Shown here piece by piece: positions 13,601-48,469 of a stretch of DNA of 64,000 nt; the stretch's first letter is position 1; every line of letters starts with the position of its first letter. Where the stretch lies: the NCBI GenBank assembly GCA_035937795.1, contig DASZHO010000062.1:7467-71466 (forward strand), given 5' to 3'. The DNA is from Vicinamibacterales bacterium. Lineage in GTDB: Bacteria > Acidobacteriota > Vicinamibacteria > Vicinamibacterales > JAMQPK01. A program made the position numbers and the translations under genes. The notes beneath the pieces are model-generated. The model did not search any database and was not told the DNA's origin. It saw only the letters and a program-made list of their open reading frames with translations.

Positions 13601-13602
13601 GA

Positions 13603-15711: not shown

Positions 15712-15713
15712 TC

Positions 15714-21694: not shown

Positions 21695-23968
21695 CTAGTT
21701 CGTGCAAAATTCACTGGAGATCACCTCCTGCGGCATCCGTGCGAACAGCTCGAGCCGTCGTTCGAGCTTGGCCATCATGATCTCGAGGTCGGTCGCATCG
21801 GGTTGCCGAACAGAAGCGGATGCCTTCTGTGGGTTGAGGGTCTCGAGAGACTCGCTGATCTGGCAGCTCGCTGCCAATGTTTGCGCATCCGCAATCATCT
21901 CGCGCACTGTCGTCACCTTCCGGACTGCGCCGCGGAATCGCCCGCGTTGGTTCAAACGGTCGACTTCGTGCAGGAGCCCGGCAAAGGTCATCGGTGGCGT
22001 GAGGAGCGGAAGGGCCACCAGGTTCGACTGGTCGGAGACGCGGCCTTTTTTCACCACCACGACGTAGTACATGTACTTCTTGTCCGTTTGCACGGTAGTG
22101 TCGAGGTAGAACAAGTCTTGGGTCGCCCCGATTTGCTCGTACGGGCCGATGTACGTGTCCCGGACTAGATTGCCACTAATCCCGTTCCACGCTTCGATGT
22201 TCAGCTGGGTGCGTACCTGGATAGGGAGTCGCTCCGCGCGCCAGATCTGATACAGCTCGGCGCCGGGCGCCACTTTCCATGACAGCAGAGCGTCGCCGCT
22301 TCTGGTCGGCTCGATCTCCAGGCGGTCTGGTGGATCGGGCGCAGCGGACCCGTGAGGAGCAGCGCGAAAAATGGCGAGTCCGTAGTAGTCGTTCACCGTG
22401 CCGAAAAACGCGCCGTGTGGCGTTGTCGCCATCGTCCGGATGCCATAGTCGAAACGGCCGCCGAAAGGATCGGAAGCGTCGGCAAAGCCGTTTGTGGTGA
22501 TTGCGGTGTAGTACCAACCGTCGTTCGTTCGATAGAGGTGAGCCCCCATGTTGTGCTGCAGCAGTGGGCCATACACGGGGTCGTTCTTCGATCCGACGCT
22601 TCCGTTATAGGTCCCGATGAACAGGGACCCATAGACATCGTCCATTTGCCACGCGTGATCGTTCATGCTATGGCCGAATCCGACATCCAGGCCGCTGAGC
22701 GGATACTTCCATTCTGAACCGCCGTTAGACGATGGAACAGCGCGTGGTTGCCCGATCACCAGGTCCCATGTATCGTCAGGGTTGATGCGTACAATCTCGG
22801 TAAACGACGCGGTTCCCACGTACAGGCGGCCGTGGTATTCATGCATGCTCACGACGGACCTGCTGGCGAGCCTGGGGTCCGGATGGTATGCACCGCTCGG
22901 TATGACCGTGACGAACTCGTACGGGGGTGTTCCTTCGGCGCGCGTTTTGATGACTGAGTAGCCGGCGCCTACCGGATCGAATGTCCCCAGGTACAGCCAC
23001 CCGTTGAACGACGCCATTTCGTAGAACACTAATTCCGGCGGAGCGGCCAGGAACCAGGCGTCATCGCCCTTGGCTGGGTCAGCCGAGCCTATGAGCGAAC
23101 CCTGGCCGAAGATTGGGCCCGAGAGCACGAAGAGCTTTCCCGCGTGGGACACTGGCGACCGAAAGCTGGAGTGGTCAGAGTTGAAGGGCAAGTCACCCAG
23201 AAACGTTCCTGGATTCTGCGGAATCGGCGTGAAATTGAGGCCGTCGGTGGTGCGCAGGATACGCGGCGGCGGAATCTTCGTGCTATCCCACATGACGGCG
23301 GTGTTCACGCCGAACGCGTACAGGGCCTCCGTGCCATCGGGATCCGTATGCGGCGCCATACCGCGGAAGGTCATCTCGAACGGTAGCTTCTTCCCTGGGC
23401 GGCCGGGGTTATCGAGTTCAAGGGGCGATTGGAACACTCGCGACCAGGTGTCAACCTGATCCCGCTCGCGGTCGCGCTCGCGTGCGTCCGAGCCGGAGCG
23501 ACCGTCTCGGCCGGGATCGCGGGAGCCATCATCGCGATCATGGGAATCGTCACCCCAATGGGGGTTGTCGACGCCTGGTGTCCAGCGCCAGATCTCGGCC
23601 TGAAGGGAGAGGTCCCCACCGTCAGGTGGGCACGACAGATCGGGATCCGGGGGAGGATAGGGAAGAAAGGTGTCGGCAAATTCCCGGCTGATGACCCCGG
23701 CCGCGAATTGCCAGATCGCAAAGAGGCTGGTGCACACCGCAGCTCGACCCGTGCCGACGTAGAGGGCGCCGTGCCACCACACCATGGACTGGGCCCAGCT
23801 GTTGTTCCGGTCGCCGAAGCCCCGAGGCGCCGCCTGCTGGAAGTCTTCGGCCGTGATCGGCCGGGCGCCGGACTCGTGTGCCTGCGCTGCCGGACTGAGG
23901 TCGATAATCGCGGCAACCGCCAGCAGAGCCGTCATCAATGCCGCAAGTGCGTACCGTCTCGTCTTCAT
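21695..23968 (-). CDS. Secreted protein of unknown function: signal peptide, Asp/Arg-rich low-complexity insert, beta-propeller-like repeats, FN3-like domain, helical C-terminus
   Basis: 'MKTRRYALAALMTALLAVAAIIDLSPAAQA' is a signal peptide. The blade motif recurs as 'HGALYVGTG', 'NGWLYLGTF', 'HGRLYVGTA', 'YGSLFIGTY'. 'PPDRLEIEPTRSGDALLSWKVAPGAELYQIWRAE...YMYYVVVV' is FN3-like. ATG 23968 was chosen because the longer ORF overlaps the upstream gene. Confidence 0.6.
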   Translation of the reverse strand: MKTRRYALAALMTALLAVAAIIDLSPAAQAHESGARPITAEDFQQAAPRGFGDRNNSWAQSMVWWHGALYVGTGRAAVCTSLFAIWQFAAGVISREFADTFLPYPPPDPDLSCPPDGGDLSLQAEIWRWTPGVDNPHWGDDSHDRDDGSRDPGRDGRSGSDARERDRERDQVDTWSRVFQSPLELDNPGRPGKKLPFEMTFRGMAPHTDPDGTEALYAFGVNTAVMWDSTKIPPPRILRTTDGLNFTPIPQNPGTFLGDLPFNSDHSSFRSPVSHAGKLFVLSGPIFGQGSLIGSADPAKGDDAWFLAAPPELVFYEMASFNGWLYLGTFDPVGAGYSVIKTRAEGTPPYEFVTVIPSGAYHPDPRLASRSVVSMHEYHGRLYVGTASFTEIVRINPDDTWDLVIGQPRAVPSSNGGSEWKYPLSGLDVGFGHSMNDHAWQMDDVYGSLFIGTYNGSVGSKNDPVYGPLLQHNMGAHLYRTNDGWYYTAITTNGFADASDPFGGRFDYGIRTMATTPHGAFFGTVNDYYGLAIFRAAPHGSAAPDPPDRLEIEPTRSGDALLSWKVAPGAELYQIWRAERLPIQVRTQLNIEAWNGISGNLVRDTYIGPYEQIGATQDLFYLDTTVQTDKKYMYYVVVVKKGRVSDQSNLVALPLLTPPMTFAGLLHEVDRLNQRGRFRGAVRKVTTVREMIADAQTLAASCQISESLETLNPQKASASVRQPDATDLEIMMAKLERRLELFARMPQEVISSEFCTN

Positions 23969-24015
23969 AGGTAACCTGCTCCCGATTCTTACGCTCATTG
24001 CATGGAACACTGACG

Positions 24016-25197
24016 TCAACGGGCCCCGACCCGAGAACGGTTGCCGCACGGGCCCTTGAAGGTGATGATCGAGGCCTCCACCTCGGGAAAGAAGAGGTGG
24101 AGAGCGGAGATCGATCTGCCGTCGGGATACCATTCGCCGTTGGCCGCTACCCCTCCTCTTTTGTCGTAGTCCGGATAGCCAGGTGAATTGTAGTGAGTGA
24201 GCTGCTGAAGCCCGCTGCCGTCTTTATTCATCAACATGAATTCAGTCTTGAGGAAAAGGAAGTTGTGCGACAACCGGTTATTTCGGAACGGATACGAGCT
24301 CATGAAGAAGATCTTCTCGCCGTCGGGAGAGAAGACTCCGTGCTCGTCCCATACCCCCGGAGTGTTGGTTAGATTGCGGACGCTGCCTGTGGTGATGTCA
24401 AGAACGTACTGATCCTGCCCCTGCGGGTCCTTCATCCCGATGTCGGCTGTGATCACCAACGACTTACCATCGGGCGCGAAGTTGCCGGGCTCGACCCAAT
24501 TGGCGCCAGCCGGCGTGATGTTTCTGAGATTGGCGAAAGAAGGCACACCGTTTCGGTCTTCGCGGAAGTCGGCCAGTATGAGTTCCCAGCGGCCGAACAG
24601 GTTCTTGAAAACGTTGCCATCGACGATCTGCGCCCACACCCCCTGTTTGCCATCGGGAGTGAACGGGATGCCAGTGAACCCGTCGCCCCGCTGGCTGCCG
24701 CCGAAGTCCGAAAGCCGGTGCCACTCGCTGCCGTCGGGTCGCGTGGCGTAGATGTTCACAAACAGGCCTGACAGTATCCAGCCTTCGATCATGCTCTTTG
24801 TATAAATGAGCGGCTTCTTGTACTCGTCCCGTTCGGCGGCGAGCAGGATCCACTTACCGGACGGGTGCCAGTGCGGCTGCTGCTTGTGGCGTTTGACTGC
24901 CGGGCTGTTCGGGCGCTCGCTGCATGTGATGCAGGTGGGACTGTTGCTCCCTTTCGCACCAACATAGAGCTGGTAAGTGCCTGCCGCGTCCTTCTTGTTC
25001 AGAACGTATTGCTCGCCGGTAGGAGACCACATCGCAAGCCCATCCGCATGCGCGATGTCTCGAACTTCGCACTCCGGATCGCCAGGCGCGCCGGCATCTG
25101 GTCGTCTCTGCGTCGCGGATGTACCGGCATGATCAGAGGTCGAAGCGCAGCTAAGACCGAGCTGGACAGCGAGCAGGATGATCGCGTTCGCCTTCAT
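24016..25197 (-). CDS. TolB-like (PD40 / WD40-like) beta-propeller protein, secreted or lipoprotein
   Basis: 'MKANAIILLAVQLGLSCAST' is a signal peptide with a possible lipobox Cys. PD40-type repeats: 'FTPDGKQ', 'FAPDGKS', 'FSPDGEK', 'WYPDGRS'. There is an ATGA overlap with the upstream GT stop (25194-25197). Confidence 0.7.
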   Translation of the reverse strand: MKANAIILLAVQLGLSCASTSDHAGTSATQRRPDAGAPGDPECEVRDIAHADGLAMWSPTGEQYVLNKKDAAGTYQLYVGAKGSNSPTCITCSERPNSPAVKRHKQQPHWHPSGKWILLAAERDEYKKPLIYTKSMIEGWILSGLFVNIYATRPDGSEWHRLSDFGGSQRGDGFTGIPFTPDGKQGVWAQIVDGNVFKNLFGRWELILADFREDRNGVPSFANLRNITPAGANWVEPGNFAPDGKSLVITADIGMKDPQGQDQYVLDITTGSVRNLTNTPGVWDEHGVFSPDGEKIFFMSSYPFRNNRLSHNFLFLKTEFMLMNKDGSGLQQLTHYNSPGYPDYDKRGGVAANGEWYPDGRSISALHLFFPEVEASIITFKGPCGNRSRVGAR

Positions 25198-27940: not shown

Positions 27941-29542
27941 TTAATCCACGTAGCCCAGCGCCTGCAGGCGCCTCAGAATCTCGCTTTCTGCCTCCGCATC
28001 CAGCTCGGCCGCAACCATCTCCGGCGTGTGGACAGGTCCATCGTCCGAATACCTTGGCGGCCGCGTGCCGAGGACAGCCGGATCCAGAGCCTCCGACACG
28101 AAGCGCCCTTCCAAATTCGGCGGGATCGGCAAATCGAGCGCGTGGAGAAGCAAGGGCGCTACATCAAGGATCGACAGTGGTTGGATCCGGGCGCCCTTGT
28201 TTACGCCGGGACCGGCGAGGACCAGTACACCGTCAGGCCTGTGGGTGCCCGTCGGCAGCGGTCTGCGTCGCGCAGGATCCGGCGAGTCCAAAATTGAAAT
28301 CAGACCGCCATCAGCGAGCTCCAGTGTCAGATCCGGGGCCAGAGAGAGGTTCGGTCCCGTGAAGATCTCCTCCCGCGTCCACACACGTGCCACCACTGCT
28401 TCGCCTGACTCCGGGTCCCGAATCTGCAGAAGATCCGAGGCCAAATCGTCTCGAAACGCCTTGTACTCATCCGCGGATACCCCGTGCGGGTGCGTTTGGT
28501 CGGCGTGAACGATATGGATGCCGTTTCCGCTCGGCAGCGGCGCGAACGCCCGCGTGCGAGTCCAATCCATCTGAAAGACATGGCGCGCCATCTGGTTCAG
28601 TCCGAGCGCCGTCGCTCCCACGCTTGCTGGCGCCTCACCCGGCTGCCACGCAAGGCGGCCGGTCTGACGCAACCAGGCATTCACGAACAACGTACGGACC
28701 TGCGGCCCGAAGCCGTGGTCCGAGGCGATGAAGACGCTGGCCTCATCGCCAACGACATCCAGTAGTTCTTCAATGCGGCGGTCCAGCTCGCTGAAGTATT
28801 CGCGGCACTTGTCGCGGACGCGAAGCTCCCAATCCGAGGCGAGCGCTCCCGTCATCTTTGGGTCGATAAACCTCCAGCAGAGGTGCTGGATCTTGTCGAC
28901 GCCGTCAAACAGGACGGCGGTGAAGTCAGCCGGCTCCTTCTCGGCAAGGTAGCGCGCAATGTCGACCCACTGCCGCTCCCGGCGGATGTGCATGTCTATC
29001 CACGGCTCGTATTCGGCTTCCTCGCAGCCCTCGATCGCCTTCGCCTCCTGCGTCATATCGAGTGCCAGCTCACGCGCGTTGAACGATGGCAGCGTGCGTA
29101 GTCGGTCGAAGAGCCCCTCCGGATGACATCCGAGCCTGAGCTGCCGCCACGGCACGAACCCACCGGGCACGATGTGACCGGCAACCTTCGGCGGCGGAAA
29201 CGTGAGCGGAAAGTTCAAGACGGTCGATCGCAGCCCTGCGCTGTTGGCGAACGACCATATCGTCGGACACGCGACGTCATGCGAGGTGAGGAAGCGGAAC
29301 AACGGGCTCGATTCCCCGTCCTTGCGAAAAAAATCGAAAATGCCGTGTGATCCTGGTCCCCGACCGGTGACGAGCGAGGTCCACGCGGGTGGCGTCAGGG
29401 CCGGCACCGTCGATCGGAGGGTTGCGCGCACGCCCGAGCCAATCACGTCGCGCAGCACGGGCATCGCGCCCTCTTCCATCAGCGGATCGAGGAGGTCGAA
29501 CGTCGCGCCATCGAGTCCGATCAGGAGCACCTCGCGCGTCAT
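27941..29542 (-). CDS. Alkaline-phosphatase-superfamily enzyme (type I phosphodiesterase / nucleotide pyrophosphatase, PF01663-like)
   Basis: 'VLLIGLDGATFDLL' (metal-site Asp), 'PALTPPAWTSLVTG' (putative Thr nucleophile), 'VFIASDHGFG'. ATG 29542 overlaps the ACP stop (ATGA, 29539-29542). Confidence 0.75.
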   Translation of the reverse strand: MTREVLLIGLDGATFDLLDPLMEEGAMPVLRDVIGSGVRATLRSTVPALTPPAWTSLVTGRGPGSHGIFDFFRKDGESSPLFRFLTSHDVACPTIWSFANSAGLRSTVLNFPLTFPPPKVAGHIVPGGFVPWRQLRLGCHPEGLFDRLRTLPSFNARELALDMTQEAKAIEGCEEAEYEPWIDMHIRRERQWVDIARYLAEKEPADFTAVLFDGVDKIQHLCWRFIDPKMTGALASDWELRVRDKCREYFSELDRRIEELLDVVGDEASVFIASDHGFGPQVRTLFVNAWLRQTGRLAWQPGEAPASVGATALGLNQMARHVFQMDWTRTRAFAPLPSGNGIHIVHADQTHPHGVSADEYKAFRDDLASDLLQIRDPESGEAVVARVWTREEIFTGPNLSLAPDLTLELADGGLISILDSPDPARRRPLPTGTHRPDGVLVLAGPGVNKGARIQPLSILDVAPLLLHALDLPIPPNLEGRFVSEALDPAVLGTRPPRYSDDGPVHTPEMVAAELDAEAESEILRRLQALGYVD

Positions 29543-29865
29543 ACACCCTCCGACGCGCCCGCGGCGCGGGAAGCTGCGGCCACCGGTTGGCGGACGTGCC
29601 GCTCGATGAAGTCGACCCATTCACTAATCGTGAGGTCGCGTACTTCACGCTGTCCGATATCCGCGAAGAATTGTGGAAACGGAAAGGTCTGGCGGAAATG
29701 CTCCTGAACCTTTGAGCCAAGGACGACGAGATCTAGCGATTCGAACGCGAGGTCGGCGAACAGCCGGGTGTTGGCGCCGACCGGCCCTTCGAATTCCCAG
29801 TCTCGAGCCACGCCGTTCAGAAGCTCCAACACCTCTGCCAGGATCTGTTCGCGCGTATATGTCAT
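29539..29865 (-). CDS. Discrete acyl carrier protein
   Basis: 108 aa. 'FADLAFESLDLVVLGSKVQE' matches the (D/E)SLD phosphopantetheine-attachment helix. A 'GGAGGAAAG' lies ~8 nt upstream of ATG 29865. Confidence 0.7.
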   Translation of the reverse strand: MTYTREQILAEVLELLNGVARDWEFEGPVGANTRLFADLAFESLDLVVLGSKVQEHFRQTFPFPQFFADIGQREVRDLTISEWVDFIERHVRQPVAAASRAAGASEGV

Positions 29866-29898: not shown

Positions 29899-32800
29899 TT
29901 ATCGAATACATGTGGCGACGATCCACTCGCCTTCGCGTGCGGTTGATGCCGACAGCGTGACGCTGCCCGCATTCGGCGACACGTAACGCATAACGACGGT
30001 GCCGCGCTCGCGGTGGATGCGCTCGACCGCCAGACCCTCGGACACGGGGTTGACGTCGCAGCCCGTGGCTTTGGCTGATGCTTCCTTCGCACACCACAGG
30101 CGTAGAGCCCATGCCTGGCGCTCGTCGCCGTCGAGGCTCTCGAGCATCTCGCGCTCACGGGCGCCAAACGCCACGTTCTCCATCCCCGGCTTCATTCGAC
30201 CGTACCGCTCGAGATCGATGCCAACGCCGGAGATGCCCTCGCCGTCGGTGAGAACGGCGACCGCCGCTCCATCGACGTGCGAAATCGAGACGAGCGGCAC
30301 CCGCGGCACCTGGCCGGTCCACGACCCGGTCACGATGGGCCGACCGGATGGCTCCGGCAAAATCTCGACATCGGCGGGACGCAGACTCAGGTGGAAGTGC
30401 CGCTGCAGATGATCGCGCACCGCATCCTTGGCCGCGATGCGCCCAAGGAGCCATTCGAGCCGACGCCGTTCGGGTACTTTCAAGCCGTACCAGATCGCGC
30501 GTTCGCGTCGGCCGAGGGTGAGCGCCCCGAGCACCCGGGACCACATCCCGCCGTGGGCGTGCAGCCAGCCAGGAGGAAACGTGTCGAGTCCGATCCTGAA
30601 CGCGATCACCCGATTCGTCTCGACTGCAGCGTTCACAAGCGCCCACGGATGAGACAACCGTACTGACGCGGGCTGTAGCAAACCGCGAAATGCCGCCTCC
30701 GGCAATTCGAAACGGCGATCCTCCCAATCCTTGAACCGCGCCCACAGACGCCCGTCCGAACGCACCACGTCCAGGTCGGAACGCACCTGATGATCTCCGA
30801 CCAGTGCGATATGCGCGCGACACGTGAGCTGTTCTCCTGCCGGAAGGGGAGGACCGTAGAGGTGCAGCGCTCCCATGCGGAAAGGCAGCACGACGAATCC
30901 ACGCTCGAGGTACTGAGACGTCCAGAAACCGACAGCCTGGCCGGGTTGATCCAGCAGGACGAAATCGGTGACGAGGCCGTCAGCGGCCTGGGGCGCGAGC
31001 AGCCTCTCCCGAGGGACGATCGTGAGCGTCGCCTCGGCCCCGTTGTCGCCGACGCGATCGATCGAGCGCACGCCGCGAAACAGCGGGCCGTGAAACATCG
31101 TTTCGTCGTACAACCGCTCGGGCGCCCATTTGTACGCCCGCTCGTGTTGCAGACCGAGCGGCTCCGGCGCGGGCGGTATCGGGTAGCTGTCGCCGAGCAG
31201 CATCACACCCTCTGCGACCGGTCCCGCCTCAGAAGCCCCAGCGTCCAGAACTCGAACTGATACCTGTGCGTCGCCGCTCCAATCGGCCGTGATTTCGAGC
31301 TGCAGCGATCCGCGGTCCACGGCGAGCCATCGATTGACGCGGACCTCCCGCATTCCGGTGACTGTTTTCTGCGGCGCGAGCGCTGTCGCTGCTTCTGCCA
31401 TGATTTCCATCAGTACCGTGAACGGCACGATCGGAAATCCTGTCAGAAGGGGATCATCGGCCGAAACGTTCCGGCCGAACGTGTGATCGCGCAGGAATGG
31501 ATGCTGATCGAGATCGAGCGTGCAGTGCGCCACCAACGGCCCGTCCACCCCGCCAGCGACAGTCTGGATGAGCGGCAACGGCCGGTATGCAGTGGCTGCG
31601 TCGCGCACGCCGGCGAACGTGTTGTTGATCAGGGCGTGCTCGACGGTCAGGAAGCGGTCCATCGTGTGCAAGAACGCCGACATCACTTGCGTTGCACCAG
31701 TTCGTTGCGCGGACGCGGAAATGGCCTGCGACTCGACGGTCTCCGACCGCATCGCCGCTGGCGGATTGGCCTCCTCGACGGTGGACCGGGTCGGCGGTGG
31801 TGCCACGTCCGCTAGGGTCGCGGGGCGGGCCGCGGGACTGGTCCGAGTACGGACCAACTCGATCATTTCTGGCGACAGGCGCATCGCGGGGGCGCCTGTC
31901 GGAAGCTTCACGGCGCCTAACGACCGACGCGGCGCGGTTTGCTTGGGGTCTGTCGTCCAGTCGATCCGCGACAATCGACGTCGTTCGTACAATGGCTCGA
32001 GCGTCAGTGCGACACCGTGTGCCGCGAGCTGCGCAATGAGATGGTGCAGCTGCAAGAGGCCGGTGCGACGGCTGACGTTTGCCGAGATGGCTGCGAACGG
32101 ACGATCGGCGAGGACGTCCTCGACAAAGGCCGTCAGGTTGCCCCGCGGTCCTGCCTCGACGAAGATGCGAAAGCCGTCCCGCCACATGTTTTCAATCGTG
32201 CGTCTGAATTCGACCGGCCGAATCCAGTGATCGAAGGCGAGCTGTTGCGCCCGCGCCAGATTTGACGGATACAGGGTCGTGCTCGTGCACGAGTAGAGCG
32301 GGACGACCGGCGGGCGCACGATCCACCGCTCGAGTAGAGGCCGCAGCGTCCGCGCGAAGGGTTCGAACTGCGGCGTATGGTACGGCCGGTCGAATGACAA
32401 CCGTTCGTAGAGGAGTCCTTCGTCTCGCAATCGCGCCTCGAGCACGCTCGCTGCGCCAGGATCGGCAATCACAACCACCTGATACCGGCAGTTATCCATC
32501 GCCACACAGGCCGTCAGGCCGATTGATGCGCACAGCGACTCCACCCGCTCCCGCGCTGCACCCACCGCGATCAGAGGTGCTTCGATCGGGAGATCGCCCG
32601 ACCCGGCAGCTTTTCCATGCTGATCGTTCAGCTCGACGACTCGTTGATCGTTGTGCACCTCGTCGACCATGCCGGCCGCACGCATCGCCGAGTACTCGCC
32701 GGAGCTGTGCCCCAGGACCGCGTCGGGGACGATACCGAGCCGTTTGAGAAGCGTACAGATCGCCTGGTTCGCGGCGACGACCGCCTCGACGGCCACGTCC

Positions 32801-34749
32801 ATCTGCCACAAGCGGCGTTCTGCGGCCGCGCGCTCGGCTTCGGTGAACGGCGGAGGCGGAAACACCAATTCACTGAGCCGATATCCGCGCGGATGGTTGA
32901 ACAGCACGCGATCCATCGCGTCGAAGCACGCGCGAACGCCGGGGAAATGACGGCAGAGATCGCTCAGCATGTTGACGTACTGCGCGCCCTCGCCGGGGAA
33001 CACGAACGCGAGCCTTCCGCTCCGCGCGAGCGGCTCGTCGAAGTAATAAATGCCGCCTACGTCTTTGATCTTGCGACACGTCGGGTCGCCAAGGCGCGTC
33101 AGCGCACGGTCCAGTTTGCGCGCCAGATCATCGATCGATCGTGCGACGATGCCGAGCGTGGTACTCGATGGTCCGCCGGCGCCGTGTTGGGTATTGAGCG
33201 AGTACGCCACGTCGGCAAGTGCTGGCGCCGGGTCGCGCGCCAGCACGGCTGCCACGCGACGACCGAGGCCAATCACCTCATCGCGACTGGCGACCGAGAA
33301 CAGACACACTTCGCTGTCCCACTCGGTATCGAGCGTCGGGCCATCATCAGGCGCGGGAGCTTCCTCGATGACGACGTGGGCGTTGATGCCGCCGAACCCG
33401 AAGGCGTTGATCCCTGCACGGCGCGGTTCGGTCGCGTCTCCATGGATCCACGGCCGCGTCTCCGTGTTGATGTAGAAGGGCGTGCGCTCGATTCCCAGCC
33501 GCGGACTCGGTCCTGTCACATTCAGTGTGGCCGGGAGCACCTTGTGGTAGAGGGCAAGCACGGCCTTGATGAAGCCCGCGATGCCGGCCGCCGGCATCGT
33601 ATGGCCGATCATCGACTTCACGCTGCCAAGTGCGCACTGTGGGGCCCGCACACGTGGCCCGAACACGCGAGCGAGTGCCTCGACTTCGGCGGCATCGCCC
33701 ACCAACGTGCCCGTGCCGTGCGCCTCAATGAGACCGACGGTCGACGGAGCAATGCCAGCCGCTGTGTACGCGCGCCGGAGGGCGAGCTCTTCCCCCTCGA
33801 TGCGGGGCGCAAGAACGCCGACAGCCCGGCCATCGCTCGCCACGCCCGTGCCCTTGATGAACGCGTAGATCCGATCGCCGTCTCGCTCGGCCTGCGACCG
33901 ACGCTTGAGGACGGCCATCCCGATTCCTTCGCTCAACAGGGTGCCATCCGCATCTTTGTCGAAGGGCCGGATGCGCTCGGTCAACGACAGCGCTTTCAGC
34001 TGACAGAACAGGCTGAGCACCGGAAGCGGTGTCGCCACCTGGAGGCCTCCCACGAGCGCGAGGTCGTACTCCCCATGACGAAGACCTTTCACGGCGATAT
34101 CGACGGCCACGAGCGACGAGGCGCACGCGGCGTCCACCGTGTAGCTGGGACCCATGATGTCCAGCCGGTTTGCGATGCGGCCCACTGTGACGTTCGGAAT
34201 CAGCGCAGGAGCTGTTTCCGCGTCGAACCGGGGAAGACGCCGTTTCAGATCCGCGCGAATGCGACACAGGTCCTCTTCGGTGAGCTCTGGTTGAATCGAT
34301 TTCAGCACTCCGAGCGTGTAATCCACGATGAGCGCATGCTGGACGACACTCAACGTCCCGCGGTTCGCGTACGTGCCCTTTCCCAGGATCAGGGCAGCTC
34401 GTTCGCGGTAGGCGCTGGCGTCCAGACATCCGGCATCGCGGAGCGCTTCGCGAGCGACGTGGAGTGCGAGCCACTGATCTGGCTCGCCACCTTCGACGGC
34501 GCGCGGCATGATGCCATGCTCCAGCGGATCGAAGTGGGCCAGCGGCCCGAGATAGCCACCTTTCCTGCAATACACCCGGTCGTTCTCGTCGGCGTTGACG
34601 TCGTAGTACACCGCCGGATCCCACGCCTCGTGCGGCGGATCCGTGATGGCGTCGACCTTGGACAAGATGTTTCGCCAGAACGCGCCGACGTTGGGCGCGC
34701 CCGGAAACAGACAGGCCACGCCGACAACGGCGATGTCTTCCGGCCTCAT
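29899..34749 (-). CDS. Pfa-like synthase subunit: KS-AT-DH-PPTase
   Basis: KS: 'IAVVGVACLFPGAPN', 'VDAACASSLVAVDIA', 'EAHGTGT', 'SMIGHTMPAAG'. AT: 'FVFPGEGAQY', 'GHSSGEYSAMRAAG'. DH (double hotdog): 'HPFLRDHTFGRNV...FPIVPFTVLMEIMAEAA', 'LLDQPGQAVGFW'. The C-terminal ~250 aa carry Sfp-type PPTase motifs 'SISHVDG', 'GVGIDLER', 'WCAKEASAKATG'. There is an ATGA overlap with the upstream gene (34746-34749). Confidence 0.9.
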   Translation of the reverse strand: MRPEDIAVVGVACLFPGAPNVGAFWRNILSKVDAITDPPHEAWDPAVYYDVNADENDRVYCRKGGYLGPLAHFDPLEHGIMPRAVEGGEPDQWLALHVAREALRDAGCLDASAYRERAALILGKGTYANRGTLSVVQHALIVDYTLGVLKSIQPELTEEDLCRIRADLKRRLPRFDAETAPALIPNVTVGRIANRLDIMGPSYTVDAACASSLVAVDIAVKGLRHGEYDLALVGGLQVATPLPVLSLFCQLKALSLTERIRPFDKDADGTLLSEGIGMAVLKRRSQAERDGDRIYAFIKGTGVASDGRAVGVLAPRIEGEELALRRAYTAAGIAPSTVGLIEAHGTGTLVGDAAEVEALARVFGPRVRAPQCALGSVKSMIGHTMPAAGIAGFIKAVLALYHKVLPATLNVTGPSPRLGIERTPFYINTETRPWIHGDATEPRRAGINAFGFGGINAHVVIEEAPAPDDGPTLDTEWDSEVCLFSVASRDEVIGLGRRVAAVLARDPAPALADVAYSLNTQHGAGGPSSTTLGIVARSIDDLARKLDRALTRLGDPTCRKIKDVGGIYYFDEPLARSGRLAFVFPGEGAQYVNMLSDLCRHFPGVRACFDAMDRVLFNHPRGYRLSELVFPPPPFTEAERAAAERRLWQMDVAVEAVVAANQAICTLLKRLGIVPDAVLGHSSGEYSAMRAAGMVDEVHNDQRVVELNDQHGKAAGSGDLPIEAPLIAVGAARERVESLCASIGLTACVAMDNCRYQVVVIADPGAASVLEARLRDEGLLYERLSFDRPYHTPQFEPFARTLRPLLERWIVRPPVVPLYSCTSTTLYPSNLARAQQLAFDHWIRPVEFRRTIENMWRDGFRIFVEAGPRGNLTAFVEDVLADRPFAAISANVSRRTGLLQLHHLIAQLAAHGVALTLEPLYERRRLSRIDWTTDPKQTAPRRSLGAVKLPTGAPAMRLSPEMIELVRTRTSPAARPATLADVAPPPTRSTVEEANPPAAMRSETVESQAISASAQRTGATQVMSAFLHTMDRFLTVEHALINNTFAGVRDAATAYRPLPLIQTVAGGVDGPLVAHCTLDLDQHPFLRDHTFGRNVSADDPLLTGFPIVPFTVLMEIMAEAATALAPQKTVTGMREVRVNRWLAVDRGSLQLEITADWSGDAQVSVRVLDAGASEAGPVAEGVMLLGDSYPIPPAPEPLGLQHERAYKWAPERLYDETMFHGPLFRGVRSIDRVGDNGAEATLTIVPRERLLAPQAADGLVTDFVLLDQPGQAVGFWTSQYLERGFVVLPFRMGALHLYGPPLPAGEQLTCRAHIALVGDHQVRSDLDVVRSDGRLWARFKDWEDRRFELPEAAFRGLLQPASVRLSHPWALVNAAVETNRVIAFRIGLDTFPPGWLHAHGGMWSRVLGALTLGRRERAIWYGLKVPERRRLEWLLGRIAAKDAVRDHLQRHFHLSLRPADVEILPEPSGRPIVTGSWTGQVPRVPLVSISHVDGAAVAVLTDGEGISGVGIDLERYGRMKPGMENVAFGAREREMLESLDGDERQAWALRLWCAKEASAKATGCDVNPVSEGLAVERIHRERGTVVMRYVSPNAGSVTLSASTAREGEWIVATCIR
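29902..30711 (-). other. Integrated Sfp-type 4'-phosphopantetheinyl transferase domain (C-terminus of the KS-AT-DH protein)
   Basis: The last ~270 aa after the DH double hotdog carry 'GRPIV...VSISHVDG', 'GVGIDLERY' and 'LWCAKEASAKATG'. These correspond to the PPTase signatures (V/I)G(I/V)D and (F/W)(S/C/T)xKE(A/S)xxK. Confidence 0.75.
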
Positions 34750-37562
34750 GGCTGGCTCCCGTCGCGCGCGTCGTCGCTGGCGAGCCTGTTCAGCGCACTG
34801 GTGCAGCTCGCCTCCATACCGTCGAGGACTGCGAGTACGCGCCCGGCTGCGTCGATGAAATGAACGTTGCTCTTCAGTGCGTGACCCGCCGCCAGGCTCT
34901 CCACGGCGACGTAACAGGTCAGCGGCTCATCTGCAAGCGGTCCGTATCGCGCGAACGAATGAAAGCGCGATGGCAGCGCCGTCTTATCATTCTTGGCACG
35001 CGACCACATGAGCAGAAGTTGCAAGGCCGCATCAAAGACAAACGGATCGATGATCCATTTTGGACGCGCGACGTCGAAGAGCACGGGGATCGCGGACGAG
35101 GAGTAGACCCTCCCCACCATCGAGGCAACACCAATGCCCACGATCTGGGTGATCCGCTGAAACAGCGGTCCGTGAAACGTCCAGTCGCTATACGCCCGGT
35201 CCAGCGATTTCGATAACGGGAGGAGCGGCCACGCCGGAATGTCGACAGCCGGGGTCTCAATCCTCCGCGAGGCCATTTGCACGACCGACCGGTAACGCAG
35301 CGGCGGGTTCATCGACGGTGTTGAGATGTCGACGTCCACTTCCGTCAATCCGTTTTCGTTGCTGTGGACTGCACTCCGCGCCGTCACACTGATGGGCACG
35401 GGCGCAGGGTCGACGGCGATGCCTTTGAGGAGCTGCAGGTCGCGCACGGCAACGACGCGGAGGTCGGGCCGTGCGGCTTGAGCCGCTTCCGCCATGAATT
35501 CCGTGGCGAACGCCAGCGGTAGCACCGGCTTTCCGTCGAGGCGGTGATCGTGTAAGTAGAGATCGACCGACTGGTCGAGGTGTCGCACGAACCGAACGGC
35601 ATCAGCTTGCGGCGACTCTCGCGTCGCATACTTGAGCAGCGGCAACCTTTCGTGCTCCGTAACGGTTCCGAGCGGAACTGCCGCGTGGCCGGCTACCACC
35701 ACCTCCGCGCCGGTCGCGGGGCCTTGCTGGATCTCCTGCCACAACGCACGGCGGCCGGCCACCGGTGAGAGGAGCTCGACGCCGCGTCGGGCGAATTCTC
35801 GCTTGAGCTCGGGCGAGACCATGCCCAACTTGTCCCACGGCGCCCACGCAATGGAACAGACGCGAACCGGCCACCGCCGCTGCAGCACGACGGCGAGCTT
35901 GCTGACCACCTCATTGGCGGCCGCGTAGTCCGCCTGCCCGCGGTTACCGAACCGCCCGGCCACAGACGAGAAGAACACCACAAACCGCAGCGATTCAGGC
36001 TGGAGGTGGCGGCCCAGCACGAAAGCGCTGACCGCCTTCGTGCGAAACACGCGGTCGAACGACTCGGCCGACTTGTCGCGCACGAGCTTGTCCTCGATGA
36101 TCCCCGCGCCATGAATCACCCCGTCGAGCCGGCCATAGGTCGCGTAGACATCATCGATGAGGGCGCCAAAGGCCTGTTCGTCCTGGACGTCCAGCTGGAC
36201 ATAGTGCGCGCGGGCGCCGGCCGCGCTGAGCTTGCTGATGGTCTCGCGAATCTCGCGCTCCTTGAGAAGCTGCCGATGCGCCTTTTCCACCATCGCCGGC
36301 GTCACCCGAGCGCCTCCCTCCCGCAACCGGGCCATCAGCGCTCGCTTGATGTCGGCCCCGATGGTCAGCGTGGCGACGTCCGCCGGTTCGGTCAGTGGAG
36401 GCAGGGGACTCTGTCCGACCAGCACGAAGGTGGGCTGATACCGATCGGCGAGCTCCAAACAGACTTCGGACGTGATGCCGCGCGCGCCACCCGTCGCGAG
36501 AATCACAGCATCACTCGGCACGACAAACGATGGATCGAGGGGTGCGGGGCTACGCACCATATCCACACCCACACGTTTGCCGTTGACGTACCCAATCTCA
36601 GGACTGGAGTCGAGCGACCACAGTTCATCGATCACATGCGCCGCCAGCGCGTCGATCGGCTCGGTCGCATCCAGATCGACGGCACGGACGCGAACGGCAG
36701 GCCATTCGATCGCCACGCATTTCGTGAATCCGACGACCCCGCCTTGACTGGGAAGCATTGAACGATCGACGGACCGAATCCCGAAGGTCCCACCCATCGA
36801 TGTCGCGGCAATGAGGGCGGCTCCCCCATTCTGCGCCGCGCTCTCCAACGAGGAACCGAGCGACCGCGCGAGCAGGAACAGCGTGCGCGTTTCACACGAG
36901 AGCCGGTTCCACCACGATGTGGCGTCGAACGTGTCGAACTGCGGCGCGACCGAGATCGGCGCCAGATGAATCAATGCGCCGACAGGCCCGCACGAGTCGC
37001 CGATCAGATGCGCGATTCGCTCGGCCTCATCCGCCGAATCGAGACGCGACACGAAGAGATCGGGTTGCGGATCCAATCCGTCGTGAGGTGCGATGACCGC
37101 CACCGGGCGCCCGTCGCGCCGGAGTTGCTCGGCAACGAGTCTCGCCACTCCGCGGCCATCGTCAGTCAAGACAACCGCGTGACCGGGCGCGACCGCGGCA
37201 TGCGCGTTGCCGGAGGGGCGCTCTCGCACGGTCAACGCGTAGCGAGAGAACGCCGCCTGATCGATCGGTGCGTGTCCGTACTGCCGTGGCTCGACAACCG
37301 GAGCGGCCTGGGCGGGAAGCGGAGGCCGTTCGGGAACTGTCGCGTGCGCGGGCGGAGCCGAAACAGCCGCAAATGCGGTTTCAGCCGCCGCTCGGGGCAC
37401 GGGCTGCGCCGCGCGAACGCGCGGTTTCCCGCGTGCGAATGCGCCTGTCACGTCCATCTGGAGATCGAGAAACTGCGCCATTACCAGCTGGAAATCCAGG
37501 AGCACGTCGGCGACCGGAGCGACCAAAGGGTATTTCATGTGCCGAGCGTCCATGGGGAGCAT
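34746..37562 (-). CDS. Pfa-like synthase subunit: KR-DH (with N-terminal helical/Pro-Ala linker and pseudo-KR region)
   Basis: KR: 'AVILATGGARGITSEVCLELA', 'GVIHGAGI', 'YAAANEVVSK'. DH: 'HDHRLDGKPVLP' (HxxxGxxxxP) plus 'FDAALQLLLMW'. ATG 37562 shares one nucleotide with the upstream TAA (TAATG). Confidence 0.85.
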   Translation of the reverse strand: MLPMDARHMKYPLVAPVADVLLDFQLVMAQFLDLQMDVTGAFARGKPRVRAAQPVPRAAAETAFAAVSAPPAHATVPERPPLPAQAAPVVEPRQYGHAPIDQAAFSRYALTVRERPSGNAHAAVAPGHAVVLTDDGRGVARLVAEQLRRDGRPVAVIAPHDGLDPQPDLFVSRLDSADEAERIAHLIGDSCGPVGALIHLAPISVAPQFDTFDATSWWNRLSCETRTLFLLARSLGSSLESAAQNGGAALIAATSMGGTFGIRSVDRSMLPSQGGVVGFTKCVAIEWPAVRVRAVDLDATEPIDALAAHVIDELWSLDSSPEIGYVNGKRVGVDMVRSPAPLDPSFVVPSDAVILATGGARGITSEVCLELADRYQPTFVLVGQSPLPPLTEPADVATLTIGADIKRALMARLREGGARVTPAMVEKAHRQLLKEREIRETISKLSAAGARAHYVQLDVQDEQAFGALIDDVYATYGRLDGVIHGAGIIEDKLVRDKSAESFDRVFRTKAVSAFVLGRHLQPESLRFVVFFSSVAGRFGNRGQADYAAANEVVSKLAVVLQRRWPVRVCSIAWAPWDKLGMVSPELKREFARRGVELLSPVAGRRALWQEIQQGPATGAEVVVAGHAAVPLGTVTEHERLPLLKYATRESPQADAVRFVRHLDQSVDLYLHDHRLDGKPVLPLAFATEFMAEAAQAARPDLRVVAVRDLQLLKGIAVDPAPVPISVTARSAVHSNENGLTEVDVDISTPSMNPPLRYRSVVQMASRRIETPAVDIPAWPLLPLSKSLDRAYSDWTFHGPLFQRITQIVGIGVASMVGRVYSSSAIPVLFDVARPKWIIDPFVFDAALQLLLMWSRAKNDKTALPSRFHSFARYGPLADEPLTCYVAVESLAAGHALKSNVHFIDAAGRVLAVLDGMEASCTSALNRLASDDARDGSQP

Positions 37563-40500
37563 TACGCGACAGCCGCCTCGGCCTGTCCGGCCAGCAGCTC
37601 CGCAAGAACGGACGCCGTTTCGCGCAGCCCCTTGATTGCTGTCAGCTTCTCCATTGCCCCCTGGAACGCACCGCGTCGAGCGCCTGCGTGCATCTGCTGA
37701 AATGCCGTCAGGATTTCCATGCGCTTGATCGAATCGATCCCCAGGTCTGCCTCGATGTTCGCGTCGGCGTCGAGCATCTCCAGCGGGTACCCGGTGCGCT
37801 CGCTGACGATGTGGAGCAACTGCGACAGAACGTCGGACGCCGAGGTGCCCGCCTGCAGCACGCCCGCAGCGGGCTGAGCGGCCGCCGGCGCAGGCGCCGC
37901 CACCATCACCGCGGCGGGTTGCGACGCGGGTTTCGACGGCGCCGCCACCGCGTGCACGGCAGAGGCAGCGACCGGTGGGGCCACGGGCGACGCCGTCACG
38001 AACTGCGCCGCGCTGTACCCAGCGGGCGGTGCAGGTCGCGGCGTCAACGCTCGCGGCGCAGCAGAAGCGACCGCCGGCAGCGTGGATGGCAGCATGGATG
38101 GGCCGACAGCGGGCGCCCCCTGCAGGTAGGCTGTCATCACGAGGGCTTGCGTCTGCAGGAACTGACTCATGAGCTGCTGAAACTGGCGCATGACGTCGTC
38201 GGAGTCTGTGTCAACCCTGAACTGAGGGCTCGGAATCGGCGAATCTGATTGCATAAGGCCATCCTGAGGAATGGGGATCTCGTCGGAGGATTCAACCGCG
38301 TTCGATGTCGGCGCGGCCAGAGCGCCAACCGGCGCCAAGGCCTGCCGCGACGCCGAGGCCTGCCGCGGCGCCTTCGACCTCGTCTCGTCCTGTCGGCGCG
38401 CCCGTCCGCCGCTGACCATCCAGACGTGCCGGGGGAGCGGTTCGGCCGGCGCCAGGTCCGCGAGCTGGATCGACTCGATCGCGCGACCCCGCCACAATTC
38501 CTCGAAATCGATCGGCACACCGGCAACCGCCAGCTGCGCGACGACGTGGAGCAGTTGTACGACTCCGTGTCGCTCCTGCGAATCCATCGACAGGATCACC
38601 GGACCGTGAACCGACAGCGTCTCGCGCACCAGGCTCGAGAGGACCGCGCGAGGACCGACTTCGACGAAGATCCGGGCACCCTCCCGGTACATCGCGTCCA
38701 GCTGCTCGGCGAACCGGACCGGCGCACTGATGTGTTCGGAAAGGACCCTTCTGATTTCCCCTGGCTCGGCCGGATACGGCGCCGCCAATGTGTTCGAGAA
38801 CACCGGAATCTTCGGTTCGTGAACATCGGTTCGCGCGAGAAGTTCGGCCATCACACGTCCCGCGGGCTGGACGAGCGGCGTGTGGAATGCGCACGCGACG
38901 GGGATTCGCCGCGCCGCCAGACCCGCCGCCGACAAAGCCACGACCGCGGCGTCGATCGCGTCGACGCGTCCAGCCAATACGGTTTGCCTCGGCGAATTCA
39001 CATTCGCGATCCACACATCGGCCGGTTGCGCCAGCACCCGCGTGATCGCGTCCGGCGACGCTGACACCGCGGCCATCGTTCCGGAATGATCGCCAGCGGC
39101 AGCCTTGATCGCGCGGCCACGGGCCGCCGAAATCGCGAAGAGGACATCGGTTGGGAACGCTCCCGCGACCGACAAGGCGACATACTCACCGTAGCTGTGC
39201 CCGGCCGTCATGTCCGGGCGCACGCCAAGCCGTCGAAGCAGATCGCACAGGCCAATCTCGACCGCTCCCAACGCGGGCTGTGCCACGACGGTATCCGTCA
39301 GCTCGCGCAGCTGCTGGTCCGCCTGATCGTCCGAGAACGCGGGCGGCGGGAGCACATACGAGCTCAAGCGTCGCGAGTACTGGCCTGACGTCACACGATC
39401 GGCGACCTCCAGCGCATGCCGCAGATCGGGGAAATGCACGGACAAATCGCGAAGCATGCCCGGATACTGCGAGCCCTGCCCCGGAAACAGGAATGCAACC
39501 TTTCCGACCGGTTCGCGGAGCCCGGACAAGTACAAACCGGCGGCTTCCATCACGTGTGTCTTGCCCGTCTTCAGCGCCTCGCATAAAGCCGCCAGCTTGC
39601 TGCGCAGATCCCTTGGGGAGGAGGCAACGATCGCGAGCCGCACGGCACCGGGTGCCGACCCGCTCGCCGTGCGACAGATCGCTGCTGCGATACTGCGCAA
39701 CGGCACATCGGGAGCGCGCGACAGCCGCTCCTCGAGCTGCTGGAGCGTGGCGAGGAGATGTTGCGGGCTCGGACTGGTGAAATACGCCACTTCCGATGGC
39801 CACGTCTCGGTGGGAGCGGCTTCAGGCAGCGCGCCGGGGCCGCTCCGTTCGTACTCTTCGACGACGACGTGAAAGTTCGTTCCGCCGAAGCCGAACGAGC
39901 TGACGGCCGCTCGCCGCGGCTGCTCGGGGTCTGGCGACGCCACCCACGGGAGTGGCTCGGTGTTGACGAAGAAGGGCGTGCCGGCCTCGCGCAGCTTTGC
40001 GTTCGGCCTGGTCACGTGGAGCGTGGGCGGCAGCACCTTGTGATGCAGCGCGAGCGCCACCTTGAGCAGACCACTGACGCCTGCTGCGGACTTCGTGTGG
40101 CCGATCATCGATTTGATCGACCCGAGCGCGCACGATCCTGGCGGTGTGCCGGCGGCTTCGAACGCGCGCGCAAGGGCGGTGACCTCCGCCGTATCGCCCG
40201 CCACGGTGCCGGTGCCGTGCGCCTCGACCAAGCCAATCGTGGCTGGCGAGAAGCCTGCCGCCGCGTACGCACGCTGGAGAACCCGCACCTGGCCCTCGGG
40301 CCGCGGGGCCGTCAGACCTTTACCGCGGCCGTCGCTCGAGCCCGCTACGCTACGGATGACGGCATATATCCGGTCGCCGTCCCGTTCCGCGTCCGCCACC
40401 CGCTTCAGCACGAGAGCGACCAGCCCCTCGCTGATCACAATCCCGTCGGCGGTGTCGTCGAACGTGCGGCAGCGCCCGGTTGGCGACAACGCCTGCGCGG

Positions 40501-43520: not shown

Positions 43521-46500
43521 TTACTGAAGCTTGCAGGTTATCCCGATGTAATCCCGCAAGTCCGGTGATACGCCTGCCCCGATTGTGAGGATGTCCGGCG
43601 CCGCACACGTCACGAATCCACCCAAATCCAGTCCCGCACCGCAGATATCGGGTGACAGCTGTCCGGCGTTGGTGGCGATCGGAATCGTAATCGTGTCATT
43701 GGACGCTGAGTTCAGGACGTTGCCGTCACTCGTTGCCGACGTCGCACCGGAGCAGACCACGCCGATCTGACGGTTGAGGATCTGGACACTGTCGAACACG
43801 CTCTTGAACCCGGGCTTACCGCCGGGGCAGGTATTGAGGAACTGCATACCGAAGTTCAAGTTCAGGTCAAGGCACGCAGAGAAGACGTTGCAATCGACCG
43901 CGTTGGATACGCCCGGCGTGAAGCAGCCAGGCACGGCCGCCAGCGCGCCGTCGACCTTGTGATTCCCGTCGCGGTCGATCACCAGCGCGACGGTGAAATC
44001 GTTCAGGCGAAGCGCTGTCGGCACAAGGCTTCCTGGTGTTCCAGTGTTCGGGAACAGCATCCGGGGCGGCACGTCGCCCTTGGCGCAGAACAGTAAGGGC
44101 TCGCTTGCATGCAGGTTCAAGTCCGGCGTGATCAGGCAGGCGCCGATCTTGACGAGATCGCCTGTTGGCGAGATCGTGCTGCACGTATCGCCCAGCGCTC
44201 CGTGGCACACGCCCTGTTCCGTACTCGTGAGGAAACCGTTGCCGGTGAAGGTCAGGGTGTCGCAGTTGTCGGCTTTGATCGCGTGACAGTATCCACGCGC
44301 GGCAGCGGTCGCGAGACCAGGAGGGTTATCGACCGTCAGCGTATCGCAGTCGGCCGGCAGAAGGCTGCCCACGTTGGCGCCTGTGTCAAAACAGCCTTGG
44401 TCGTCGCCTGCCTTCAACTTGCCGGCCGCGGTCAGGCTGGCGAACATCATGTTGATGGCATCGTCCGAGAGACCGATGAGGGCGTCCTGGGCGCCCTGCG
44501 ACTGCATGGCTGACATGGTGGGCACCGGCGCCGGCGTCAGGATGATGCCCGGCGTCTGCGCGACACCGGCGTCCACGACCGTCGTCGCAAACGTTCCTTT
44601 GAGTCCGGCCGTGATTCCGGCCGGGGAGATGTGTACCTCGGTTACGGCTCCGCTCACTTTCTGATCGAAGTTCGCCACGACCTGTTCGTCGACCTTGATT
44701 TGTTTCAACTTGACCGGGTCCGGTTGACTGGCCCCGATCTGCGTCGAGAAGTCCTGCACCGTCGAGAAGTCGATGTGCGGGTTGATGTCGACAGCGCCAA
44801 ACGTGAAAATCGTCACGACGACATTGCACAACACGCTCAAGCCGCAGAAATCGACGCCCACCGATCCATTCGAGGCGGCAGTCGCGCCTGCATTGAAATT
44901 GGAGTTCGAGAACGTGTTCGTGAGCAGGTTGTTTTCCGTCACGTCGAACCCGAGGTTGATGCCTGTCACGTCGGCGAAGGCATCCCCCTCGACCTTGACG
45001 CCCTCGACGCAGATGGTGTCGCCCCAGTCGCCGCCGGTACCATACGCGTGCACATCGACGTGGATGTCTGGCAGGCCGACGGTGACATGGAAGAAGCCGT
45101 CATGGAAGTCGGTGTTGCAAGCAAAGTTATTGCCGACGCTGACGTTCGTGATGCTCAACGTGACGTCGGGGTCGCTCGCGCACGGCACGCTCGGCTTGAT
45201 GTGCTGCTGGCCGATGCTGTTGATGCCATCGGTGATCTTCTTTTTGAAAATCTGCGCGGGTGTCATGCCGTTGAACGGGCTCGTCGGATCGTCGAGCGGT
45301 TTGTTGCACAGGTTACTGAACAGCGTCTGTGTGCCGGCCGCCGAGAGCCCCACGATGAACGCATTCTGCAGATCGGTGGATGCCGGATCCATCGCGATTT
45401 GAACCTGGTCCTGGACCAGCTGCTTCAGCTGGTCATTCACCGCAGCTTGGATGGCCGCGCTCTGAAACACTCTGGCGTTCGGGTCTATGCCGATGGGCGC
45501 GACGGCGCCGGTGGCAAAGATCAAGTTCTTGTACGTCCGGCTTCCGCCTATTTCCCTCGCGGATACGGCGAGCCGATTCGTGCCGGCGTCGAATGTGCCG
45601 AGCGGCGCATCGTGCGTCTGGAGGACATCGCGCACTAGGTCGGTTTGATCCAGCGTTGTGTTGATCGCCACCGTGTAGACATCGCCGGTGGTCGTGCCGT
45701 TGCCGGCCACGTGCGTCTCGCCGGCAACCGACAGCGTCTTCCCGTTGATGTTCACGTCGACAATCTGAGTACCGCTGCACACCTGGCCGGCCACGGGAGT
45801 CGGCACGATCGGTGTGATCTCCCCGGGCACCGGATCGGTGATCGAGATCGCAAATACGGACGAGGTGCCCTTGTCGGCGAGACGTTCAAAGCACCCTCTG
45901 CGATCGTCGTGCTCTTCCTCGTCCCCCCTCCCAAACCTCCCATCGTGGTGCTCTTCTTCGTCCTTCTCCCCGAACCTCCCGTCGTGGTGCTCTTCTTTGT
46001 CCAGGTCCAGCTCATGGGCACTGACGTTGAAGACGTGGCCTCCGCACGAGAGGTCCTGCAGGGTCACCCGGACCGTGTTCGACGACAGCGAACTGATATT
46101 CGACGCGATGTCGACAATCAAATTCGTATAGCTCAGCGGTTGCCCATTGATCGTCGCCGTACCGTTGCACGGTGACAGGGGGGTGCAACCGAGGTAATTG
46201 GGAACGCTGGTCAGGAGGTCGCCGCCATCCACGTACAGATGGAGGGAGGACGGATTGGTGAGCGGAACAGCCGCGAGGACGTTCGTCGCGGTGCTCGAGG
46301 CGCTCACCACGGCGCCTTGCGGCTGGACCACCTCGACCCAAGGAATGGTTGAGCAGAACGCTTCTGCCCTCTGTCCTTGATCCTCGACCGTGACATGCAG
46401 GAGCGGAACCGGCGCGACGACGGTATATTCGTGTTCGCGTTGATTGTACGAAAATCGCCATTCATGCCGCGATAGCTCGCTGGCCAGGCGGGCCTCGTCG

Positions 46501-46991: not shown

Positions 46992-47104
46992 GACGAATCT
47001 CCTTCGATTGGTTTGACGGTGCGCGCATGCGCCAGAAAAAACGCGTGTATCCTCCGATGCGCTAGCGCGAGTGTCAAGCGATAAACGACGACGGAATCGA
47101 TCCT

Positions 47105-48452: not shown

Positions 48453-48469
48453 GACAGTCGACGTTGCGC

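Follow-up and report, generated by a model that had tools for sequence, protein, structure and literature searches.

An Sfp-type phosphopantetheinyl transferase domain at the C terminus of a KS-AT-DH subunit in a pfa-like lipid synthase cluster of an uncultured Vicinamibacterales lineage

Phosphopantetheinyl transferases (PPTases) integrated into larger synthase proteins have been described for several pfa-like systems. ArsD is described as a PPTase that modifies ArsA (PMC4824345); a PPTase lies within pfaC of Pseudoalteromonas DS-12, and Renibacterium, Frankia and Streptomyces avermitilis carry the clusters grouped by Shulse & Allen as Type M (PMC3098273); and pfaDA together with pfaBC-PPTase fusions has been published for 'secondary lipid synthases' (PMC13291983), with similar clusters in Aquimarina and Flavobacterium. 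Here, we analyse a further member from an uncultured lineage. In a 64-kb stretch of contig DASZHO010000062.1 from a Vicinamibacterales bacterium (hereafter the window), a subunit with ketosynthase (KS), acyltransferase (AT) and dehydratase (DH) domains ends in an Sfp-type PPTase domain, and the sequence comparisons below indicate that this domain very probably primes the carriers of its synthase in trans, using coenzyme A (CoA) and Mg2+, as part of the pfa-like secondary lipid synthase lineage. A first-pass annotation, made from the letters of this DNA, had predicted the fusion and pointed to enediyne polyketide synthases (PKSE) and fungal fatty acid synthase (FAS) as precedents and omitted the closest ones. 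The rarity it implied was overstated, because ArsD-type DH-PPTase proteins and pfaBC-PPTase fusions had already been published (PMC3098273, PMC13291983, PMC4824345); the integrated DH-PPTase fusion is already known.

The gene and the domains that it encodes lie as follows (aa, amino acids).

29899-34749, minus strand: KS-AT-DH-PPTase gene, translating to 1616 aa
33517-34740, minus strand: ketosynthase domain (Pfam), aa 4-411
32098-33006, minus strand: acyltransferase domain (Pfam), aa 582-884, with active-site motif GHSSGE
30706-31545, minus strand: double-hotdog dehydratase of the polyketide synthase (PKS) type (Pfam), aa 1069-1348
29902-30609, minus strand: folded PPTase, about aa 1381-1616 (~235 residues), from an AlphaFold2 model of aa 1347-1616
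30250-30609, minus strand: N-terminal AcpS-like PPTase lobe, about aa 1381-1500, with WLLGRIAAKDA, SGRP (P1a) and VSISH (P1b', His1491)
29902-30249, minus strand: C-terminal catalytic PPTase lobe, aa 1501-1616, where the Pfam ACPS match (1508-1614) falls
30070-30279, minus strand: span of the catalytic and Mg-binding residues, from His1491 to Lys1560
30277-30279, 30214-30216, 30208-30210, 30082-30084 and 30070-30072: codons of His1491, Asp1512, Glu1514, Glu1556 and Lys1560

The stop codon occupies 29899-29901, and the interval originally assigned to the PPTase, 29899-30711, is accurate, its first ~35 aa being the end of the DH and a linker. The ketosynthase has its catalytic Cys in DAACASS and both His residues in EAHGTGT and IGHT, and the dehydratase has its His in LRDHTFG and LLDQPGQ as its DxxxQ motif. 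A Pfam scan of the 1616-aa protein found no PP-binding and no ketoreductase (KR) domain.

Pfam, the AlphaFold2 model, Foldseek and residue alignment agree on the identity of the C-terminal domain. The PF01648 (ACPS) profile, whose gathering cut-off is 25, matches aa 1508-1614 of the whole protein with 45 bits and the excised 270 aa with 51.5 bits (E 1.2e-13), and Pfam places a weak 4PPT_N match at aa 1427-1500. The model of aa 1347-1616 has two lobes and high confidence (predicted local distance difference test score, pLDDT, 93.8; predicted template-modelling score, pTM, 0.92). Searched with Foldseek against the PDB, its best 34 matches are all two-lobed Sfp-type enzymes (MuPPT, PptT, PptAb, AASDHPPT, PcpS and Sfp; E 5e-11 to 2e-8, probability 1.0, target-normalised TM 0.66-0.78), and AcpS covers one PPTase lobe only. 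Profile and fold searches were needed because a PDB search with the single domain sequence gave marginal matches only (E ~1e-3). A family profile built from 62 homologues reached AcpS over the N-terminal lobe (7e-19) and Sfp over both lobes (3e-10), and also matched AASDHPPT, PptT and, weakly, the PPT of fungal FAS (E ~1e-10). The best PPTase model in NCBIfam was HetI, at 31 bits against a cut-off of 370. The prediction thus held in the profile search as in the structural model.

The three tail motifs quoted in the first-pass annotation are present, as SISHVDG at 1488-1494, GVGIDLER at 1508-1515 and WCAKEASAKATG at 1552-1563. Mycobacterial structures of the PptT type align with them (SLTH with SISH, SVGIDAE with GVGIDLE and FCAKEATYK with WCAKEASAK, the window domain being the latter of each pair). 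We take His1491 to be the catalytic His of Sfp and PptT, Asp1512 and Glu1514 the two Mg-binding acidic residues, Glu1556 the third acidic residue and Lys1560 the Lys. Among 118 full-length homologues, His1491 is retained in 111, Asp1512 in 109, Glu1514 in 111, Glu1556 in 110 and Lys1560 in 113. Profiles, model and alignment together confirm the C terminus as a predicted Sfp-type PPTase of the W/KEA class with an intact active site, from which we infer that the domain is catalytically competent. A separate observation concerns the N-terminal lobe, which is normally degenerate: in this PPTase family it retains an AcpS-like GRxAAKD/E motif (aa 1427-1500 of the window protein, 30250-30471), and the family-profile match of this lobe to Bacillus subtilis AcpS (E 7e-19) is stronger than any match of the catalytic lobe in the PDB.

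The fusion is widespread. In a search with the full-length protein, the best 120 matches are 46-81% identical and nearly all have a C-terminal PF01648 domain; the few with names come from Vicinamibacteria, Pyrinomonadaceae, Blastocatellia, Caldilineae, Herpetosiphonaceae, Thermomicrobiaceae and metagenome-assembled genomes (MAGs) of Deltaproteobacteria. Relatives already carry the JGI label 'acyl transferase domain-containing protein/phosphopantetheinyl transferase'. When the 270-aa piece was searched against a library of 1.84 billion representatives, 3273 relatives were found at E<=1e-3 and 191 at E<=1e-30. We counted 105 of the best 150 as fused because at least 100 residues precede the aligned piece, and the others are mostly short proteins, probably fragments at contig ends. 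The PPTase fusion is common in soil metagenomes.

Among described systems, the alkylresorcinol/alkylpyrone system arsABCD, known from Azotobacter vinelandii and Beijerinckia indica, offers a close comparison; its type III PKS genes, arsB and arsC, lie between the genes of the synthase. A tblastn search of plasmids found Beijerinckia indica pBIND02, whose cluster is of Type P (ars) in the classification of Shulse & Allen (PMC3098273). It encodes a protein with enoylreductase (ER), KS, AT, acyl carrier protein (ACP) and KR domains, two type III PKSs and an ArsD homologue of 629 aa in which Pfam finds PS-DH and ACPS. The DH-PPTase part of the window protein is colinear with this ArsD homologue (E 8e-52 at 29% identity, over 94% of the query), the SIxH, GxDxE and WCAKEA motifs are common to both, and each is partnered by an ER-KS-AT-ACP(-KR) protein with an ACP that needs priming in trans. 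Whereas the Beijerinckia protein is DH-PPTase only, the window protein also has KS and AT domains, and the window has a pair of small ACP and phosphodiesterase genes that the Beijerinckia locus lacks. Since we found no type III PKS or chalcone-synthase-like domain among the window open reading frames (ORFs) scanned, which excepted a few small ones, we do not regard the window cluster as an ars (Type P) system.

Type M is alike in another respect, as it combines a fused ER-KS-AT-ACP protein with a second protein, KS-AT-DH, that ends in a PPTase. A Type M-like cluster lies on a plasmid of Streptomyces sp. NBC_01243.

L013, 5102-20076: ER-KS-AT-ACP-KR, KS-AT-DH-PPTase (1492 aa), 108-aa ACP, hydrolase, glycosyltransferase and methyltransferase, in this order

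Its 108-aa ACP is homologous to that of the window (E 8e-10). The two loci differ in that the KR is part of the ER-KS-AT-ACP-KR protein in Streptomyces but sits in a separate KR-DH gene in the window, and in that an alpha/beta hydrolase follows the ACP in Streptomyces whereas a PF01663 phosphodiesterase does so in the window; their DH-PPTase parts are only ~31% identical. The published PPTase motifs of Types M-T are P1a x(G/D)xP and P1b' hShxH (PMC3098273). The window domain fits them with SGRP (P1a) and VSISH (P1b') and has no P0 hRxhLS.

The window domain shares its two-lobed fold and catalytic residues with the stand-alone enzymes Sfp, PptT, PcpS, HetI and PfaE, but it is fused. We rejected a PfaE-type assignment: the domain is fused, lacks P0 and has VSISH in place of the P1b motif (F/S)NxSH. 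The PPTase of fungal FAS alpha is likewise integrated at the C terminus of a megasynthase, yet it is a single AcpS-like lobe working as an oligomer, whereas the window domain is a two-lobed pseudodimer of the Sfp type.

The PKSE SgcE, CalE8 and DynE8 are iterative type I enzymes with the order KS-AT-ACP-KR-DH-PPTase on a single polypeptide, which primes itself. Compared by domain architecture rather than by sequence, they have a C-terminal DH-PPTase in common with the window protein, and the sister subfamily with the order KS-AT-ACP-DH-PPTase (64 of the 118 homologues) differs from them mainly by the absent KR. Lacking both an ACP and a KR, the window protein cannot self-prime in cis, and for want of these two domains we rejected a PKSE assignment. 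The plasmid tblastn search returned no PKSE sequence, NCBIfam reported no PKSE-specific family, the literature yielded nothing of use on self-priming of PKSE, and no enediyne cassette genes were seen among the neighbours (ACP, phosphodiesterase and glycosyltransferases), to which no models for such genes were applied.

The absence of an ACP from the KS-AT-DH-PPTase subunit, claimed at the outset, is plain both from the missing PP-binding match and from the alignment of the homologues P0121-P0240. An in-line ACP lies between AT and DH in 64 of the 118 full-length homologues (PUFA-type, LGIDSIKRVEIL; median length 1820 aa), whereas the other 54, the window protein included, have a clean gap (median ~1650 aa). 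As the subunit has no ACP, its PPTase must modify carriers on other polypeptides. Four carrier domains had been listed for the window, and all four exist.

37562-43363, minus strand: ER(PfaD-like)-KS-AT-ACP protein, 1933 aa, a fused pfaD-pfaA homologue (Pfam NMO(ER)-KS-AT-PP-binding)
37694-37822, minus strand: in-line PUFA-type ACP of this protein, aa 1848-1890 of 1933, LGIDSIKRMEIL
34746-37562, minus strand: KR-DH subunit, 938 aa, corresponding to PfaA positions 1756-2579
29539-29865, minus strand: discrete 108-aa ACP, with attachment Ser43 in FESLD
27941-29542, minus strand: PF01663 phosphodiesterase of the alkaline phosphatase superfamily, third member of the cassette discussed below
13603-15987, minus strand: FAAL-ACP
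7130-13606, minus strand: MAS-like synthase, KS-AT-DH-ER-KR-ACP

Start and stop codons overlap at 37562 (TAATG) and at 34746-34749, where the stop of the KR-DH gene and the ATG of the PPTase gene share ATGA; the 108-aa ACP gene starts 33 nt past the PPTase stop, with a GGAGGA ribosome-binding site ahead of it, and its own stop overlaps the ATG of the phosphodiesterase gene (ATGA). These minus-strand synthase genes are a tightly coupled operon, with translational coupling predicted from the overlaps. PfaA is the best NCBIfam model for all three large subunits, each below its cut-off, and scores 809 bits with the ER-KS-AT-ACP protein.

The order is shared by related loci in MAGs of Acidobacteriota and Chloroflexota, which have ER-KS-AT-ACP(-KR-DH), KS-AT-(ACP)-DH-PPTase, the small ACP and the PF01663 phosphodiesterase (L009, 78% identity; L010 and L011, 46%; the Caldilineales locus L005, 41%). 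The PPTase domain would move 4'-phosphopantetheine from CoA onto the serine of the apo-carriers of its own synthase, using Mg2+. The likeliest targets would be the C-terminal PUFA-type ACP of the ER-KS-AT-ACP protein, which is likely the main substrate, and the 108-aa ACP whose gene begins 33 nt further downstream, likely a dedicated substrate or partner. The link between PPTase and small ACP is strengthened by the existence of natural PPTase-ACP fusion proteins: in one of these (P0076, 385 aa), the PPTase is 36% identical to the window domain and the ACP 40% identical to the small ACP of the window (E 9e-26). We rejected the idea that the small ACP is a relocated in-line ACP, as we detected no resemblance between it and either the in-line ACP of the ACP-containing subfamily or the PfaA-type ACP; the Caldilineales locus carries both an in-line ACP and a small ACP ORF.

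The FAAL-ACP and the ACP of the MAS-like synthase are possible further substrates, without support from conservation. Sfp-type enzymes are often promiscuous, and a search of the window with the family profile in all six frames found no second PPTase; for these two reasons priming of both carriers is plausible. Alternatively, the PPTase may be active but narrow, priming only the co-evolving in-line PUFA-type ACP and the small ACP, in which case a general Sfp-type PPTase elsewhere would prime the FAAL-ACP and the MAS-like ACP and the cluster, contrary to the first-pass annotation, would therefore not be self-sufficient. In the related loci examined, those two carrier types are the only ones that accompany the PPTase, no FAAL-ACP or MAS-like synthase lies within 10 kb, and fusions of the PPTase with the same small ACP exist. 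Against such narrowness stand the promiscuity common among Sfp-type enzymes, the lack of a second PPTase in the window and the shared strand of all genes from 43363 down to ~1357, which is consistent with one large cluster. On balance, we hold the narrow alternative as a tentative one, a serious possibility that we do not favour.

The PPTase, the small ACP and the PF01663 phosphodiesterase stand in this order in the window and in L005, L009, L010, L011, L014 and L015. Each locus of Acidobacteriota or Chloroflexota type that we examined has, directly after the PPTase, a small ACP of ~105-111 aa and then a PF01663 protein of ~535 aa. The corresponding positions are as follows.

Window, 27941-29865, minus strand
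L005, 11785-13811
L009, 14911-16844
L010, 15133-17084
L011, 6556-8489
L014, 10001-12762
L015, 3201-5962

In L014 and L015, PPTase and ACP form one 385-aa protein, a stand-alone KS plus ACP replaces the large synthase, and ATP sulfurylase/APS kinase, a halogenase and a sulfotransferase are encoded nearby. The window has another PF01663 paralogue (48464-49849, plus strand) a few kb upstream of its synthase genes, and so do L009 (1-1060, minus strand) and L014 (4630-6039).

This cassette could be read as an on/off unit, in which the PPTase installs the arm and the phosphodiesterase then cuts the Ser-phosphate bond or a CoA-derived pyrophosphate. The order is kept even where a stand-alone KS replaces the KS-AT-DH protein, and the stop codon of the ACP gene shares bases with the start of the phosphodiesterase gene; yet action of the PF01663 family on ACPs is without precedent, the only family matches of the phosphodiesterase are weak ones to phosphonoacetate hydrolase, the homologous Streptomyces cluster has an alpha/beta hydrolase at the phosphodiesterase position, and conserved adjacency by itself does not define chemistry. 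We found nothing relevant in the literature on a cassette of PPTase, ACP and alkaline-phosphatase-family protein. An on/off unit is very unlikely, and we give as little credence to the purposes that it might serve, namely release of acyl-phosphopantetheine or recycling of the carrier or of the 3',5'-ADP by-product.

Homologues in some MAGs of Desulfobacteraceae and Thermodesulfobacteriota (L002, 3-2582; L004, 6632-11260; L008, 6797-11389) stop after the N-terminal PPTase lobe, covering positions 1-174 of the 306 in the PPTase profile, and no separate ORF for the absent catalytic lobe was detected at these three loci. That the domain is a degenerate structural remnant, such as a docking or dimerisation element that transfers no phosphopantetheine, is highly improbable: these half-domains and the few homologues with substituted catalytic residues would agree with it, but the window domain has all catalytic and Mg-binding residues, which ~93-96% of the 118 homologues keep, and both of its lobes are predicted with high confidence.

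Several points nevertheless weigh against in-trans priming by an active PPTase domain of this lineage. The relatives that retain only the N-terminal lobe imply that decay of the domain is possible within the family, and ~5-8% of the full-length homologues are substituted at catalytic positions. The activity and substrate range of the domain are predictions from sequence, and some or even all of the priming may fall to a separate housekeeping Sfp-type PPTase elsewhere in the genome. The assignment to Type M, for its part, is drawn from the published verbal description and the Streptomyces plasmid locus rather than from the Renibacterium or Frankia proteins. Priming in trans by the fused domain remains our preferred reading.

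Downstream of the synthase genes lie GT1 glycosyltransferases, TylF, FkbM and other methyltransferases, the FAAL-ACP, the KS-AT-DH-ER-KR-ACP synthase and two epimerase/FAD-oxidase fusions. As glycosyltransferase, methyltransferase, FAAL-ACP and synthase genes occur together here, the product of the cluster is probably a glycosylated, methylated long-chain lipid. The two fusions are tandem ~790-aa paralogues at the cluster edge (1357-3735 and 3761-6112, both minus strand), each with an NAD-dependent epimerase/dehydratase fused to a domain like FAD-binding D-arabinono-1,4-lactone oxidase, an unusual architecture for sugar modification. The ER-KS-AT-ACP protein (37562-43363), for which a GTG start is predicted at 43363, has a second, N-terminal NMO/FabK-like stretch at aa ~40-340 (IAKGHESGG) before its main PfaD-like ER, and this stretch may be a duplicated or pseudo-ER. 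Pfam matches nothing in two minus-strand ORFs, 43521-47123 (1200 aa) and 21695-24133 (812 aa); the reality and strand of the former are uncertain because of the strongly negative skew between A and T (-0.138 at 44001-46000).

Taken together, these comparisons assign the window cluster to the ArsD/Type M branch of pfa-like lipid synthases, which has been little studied and in which the ars phenolic lipids are the only known products. Since the activating enzyme is part of the synthase, heterologous expression of this cluster, or of related ones from uncultured soil bacteria, may not require a helper PPTase such as Sfp, and the plasmid-borne Streptomyces cluster, which comes from a cultured strain, could be a tractable experimental model for the family. 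The fusion by itself raises no new question, but the cassette conserved across Acidobacteriota, Chloroflexota and other uncultured lineages might: if it does work as an on/off unit, then an as yet uncharacterised family of synthases for glyco- or sulfolipids would have a new way of releasing lipid chains as acyl-phosphopantetheine or of returning the carrier to its starting state.

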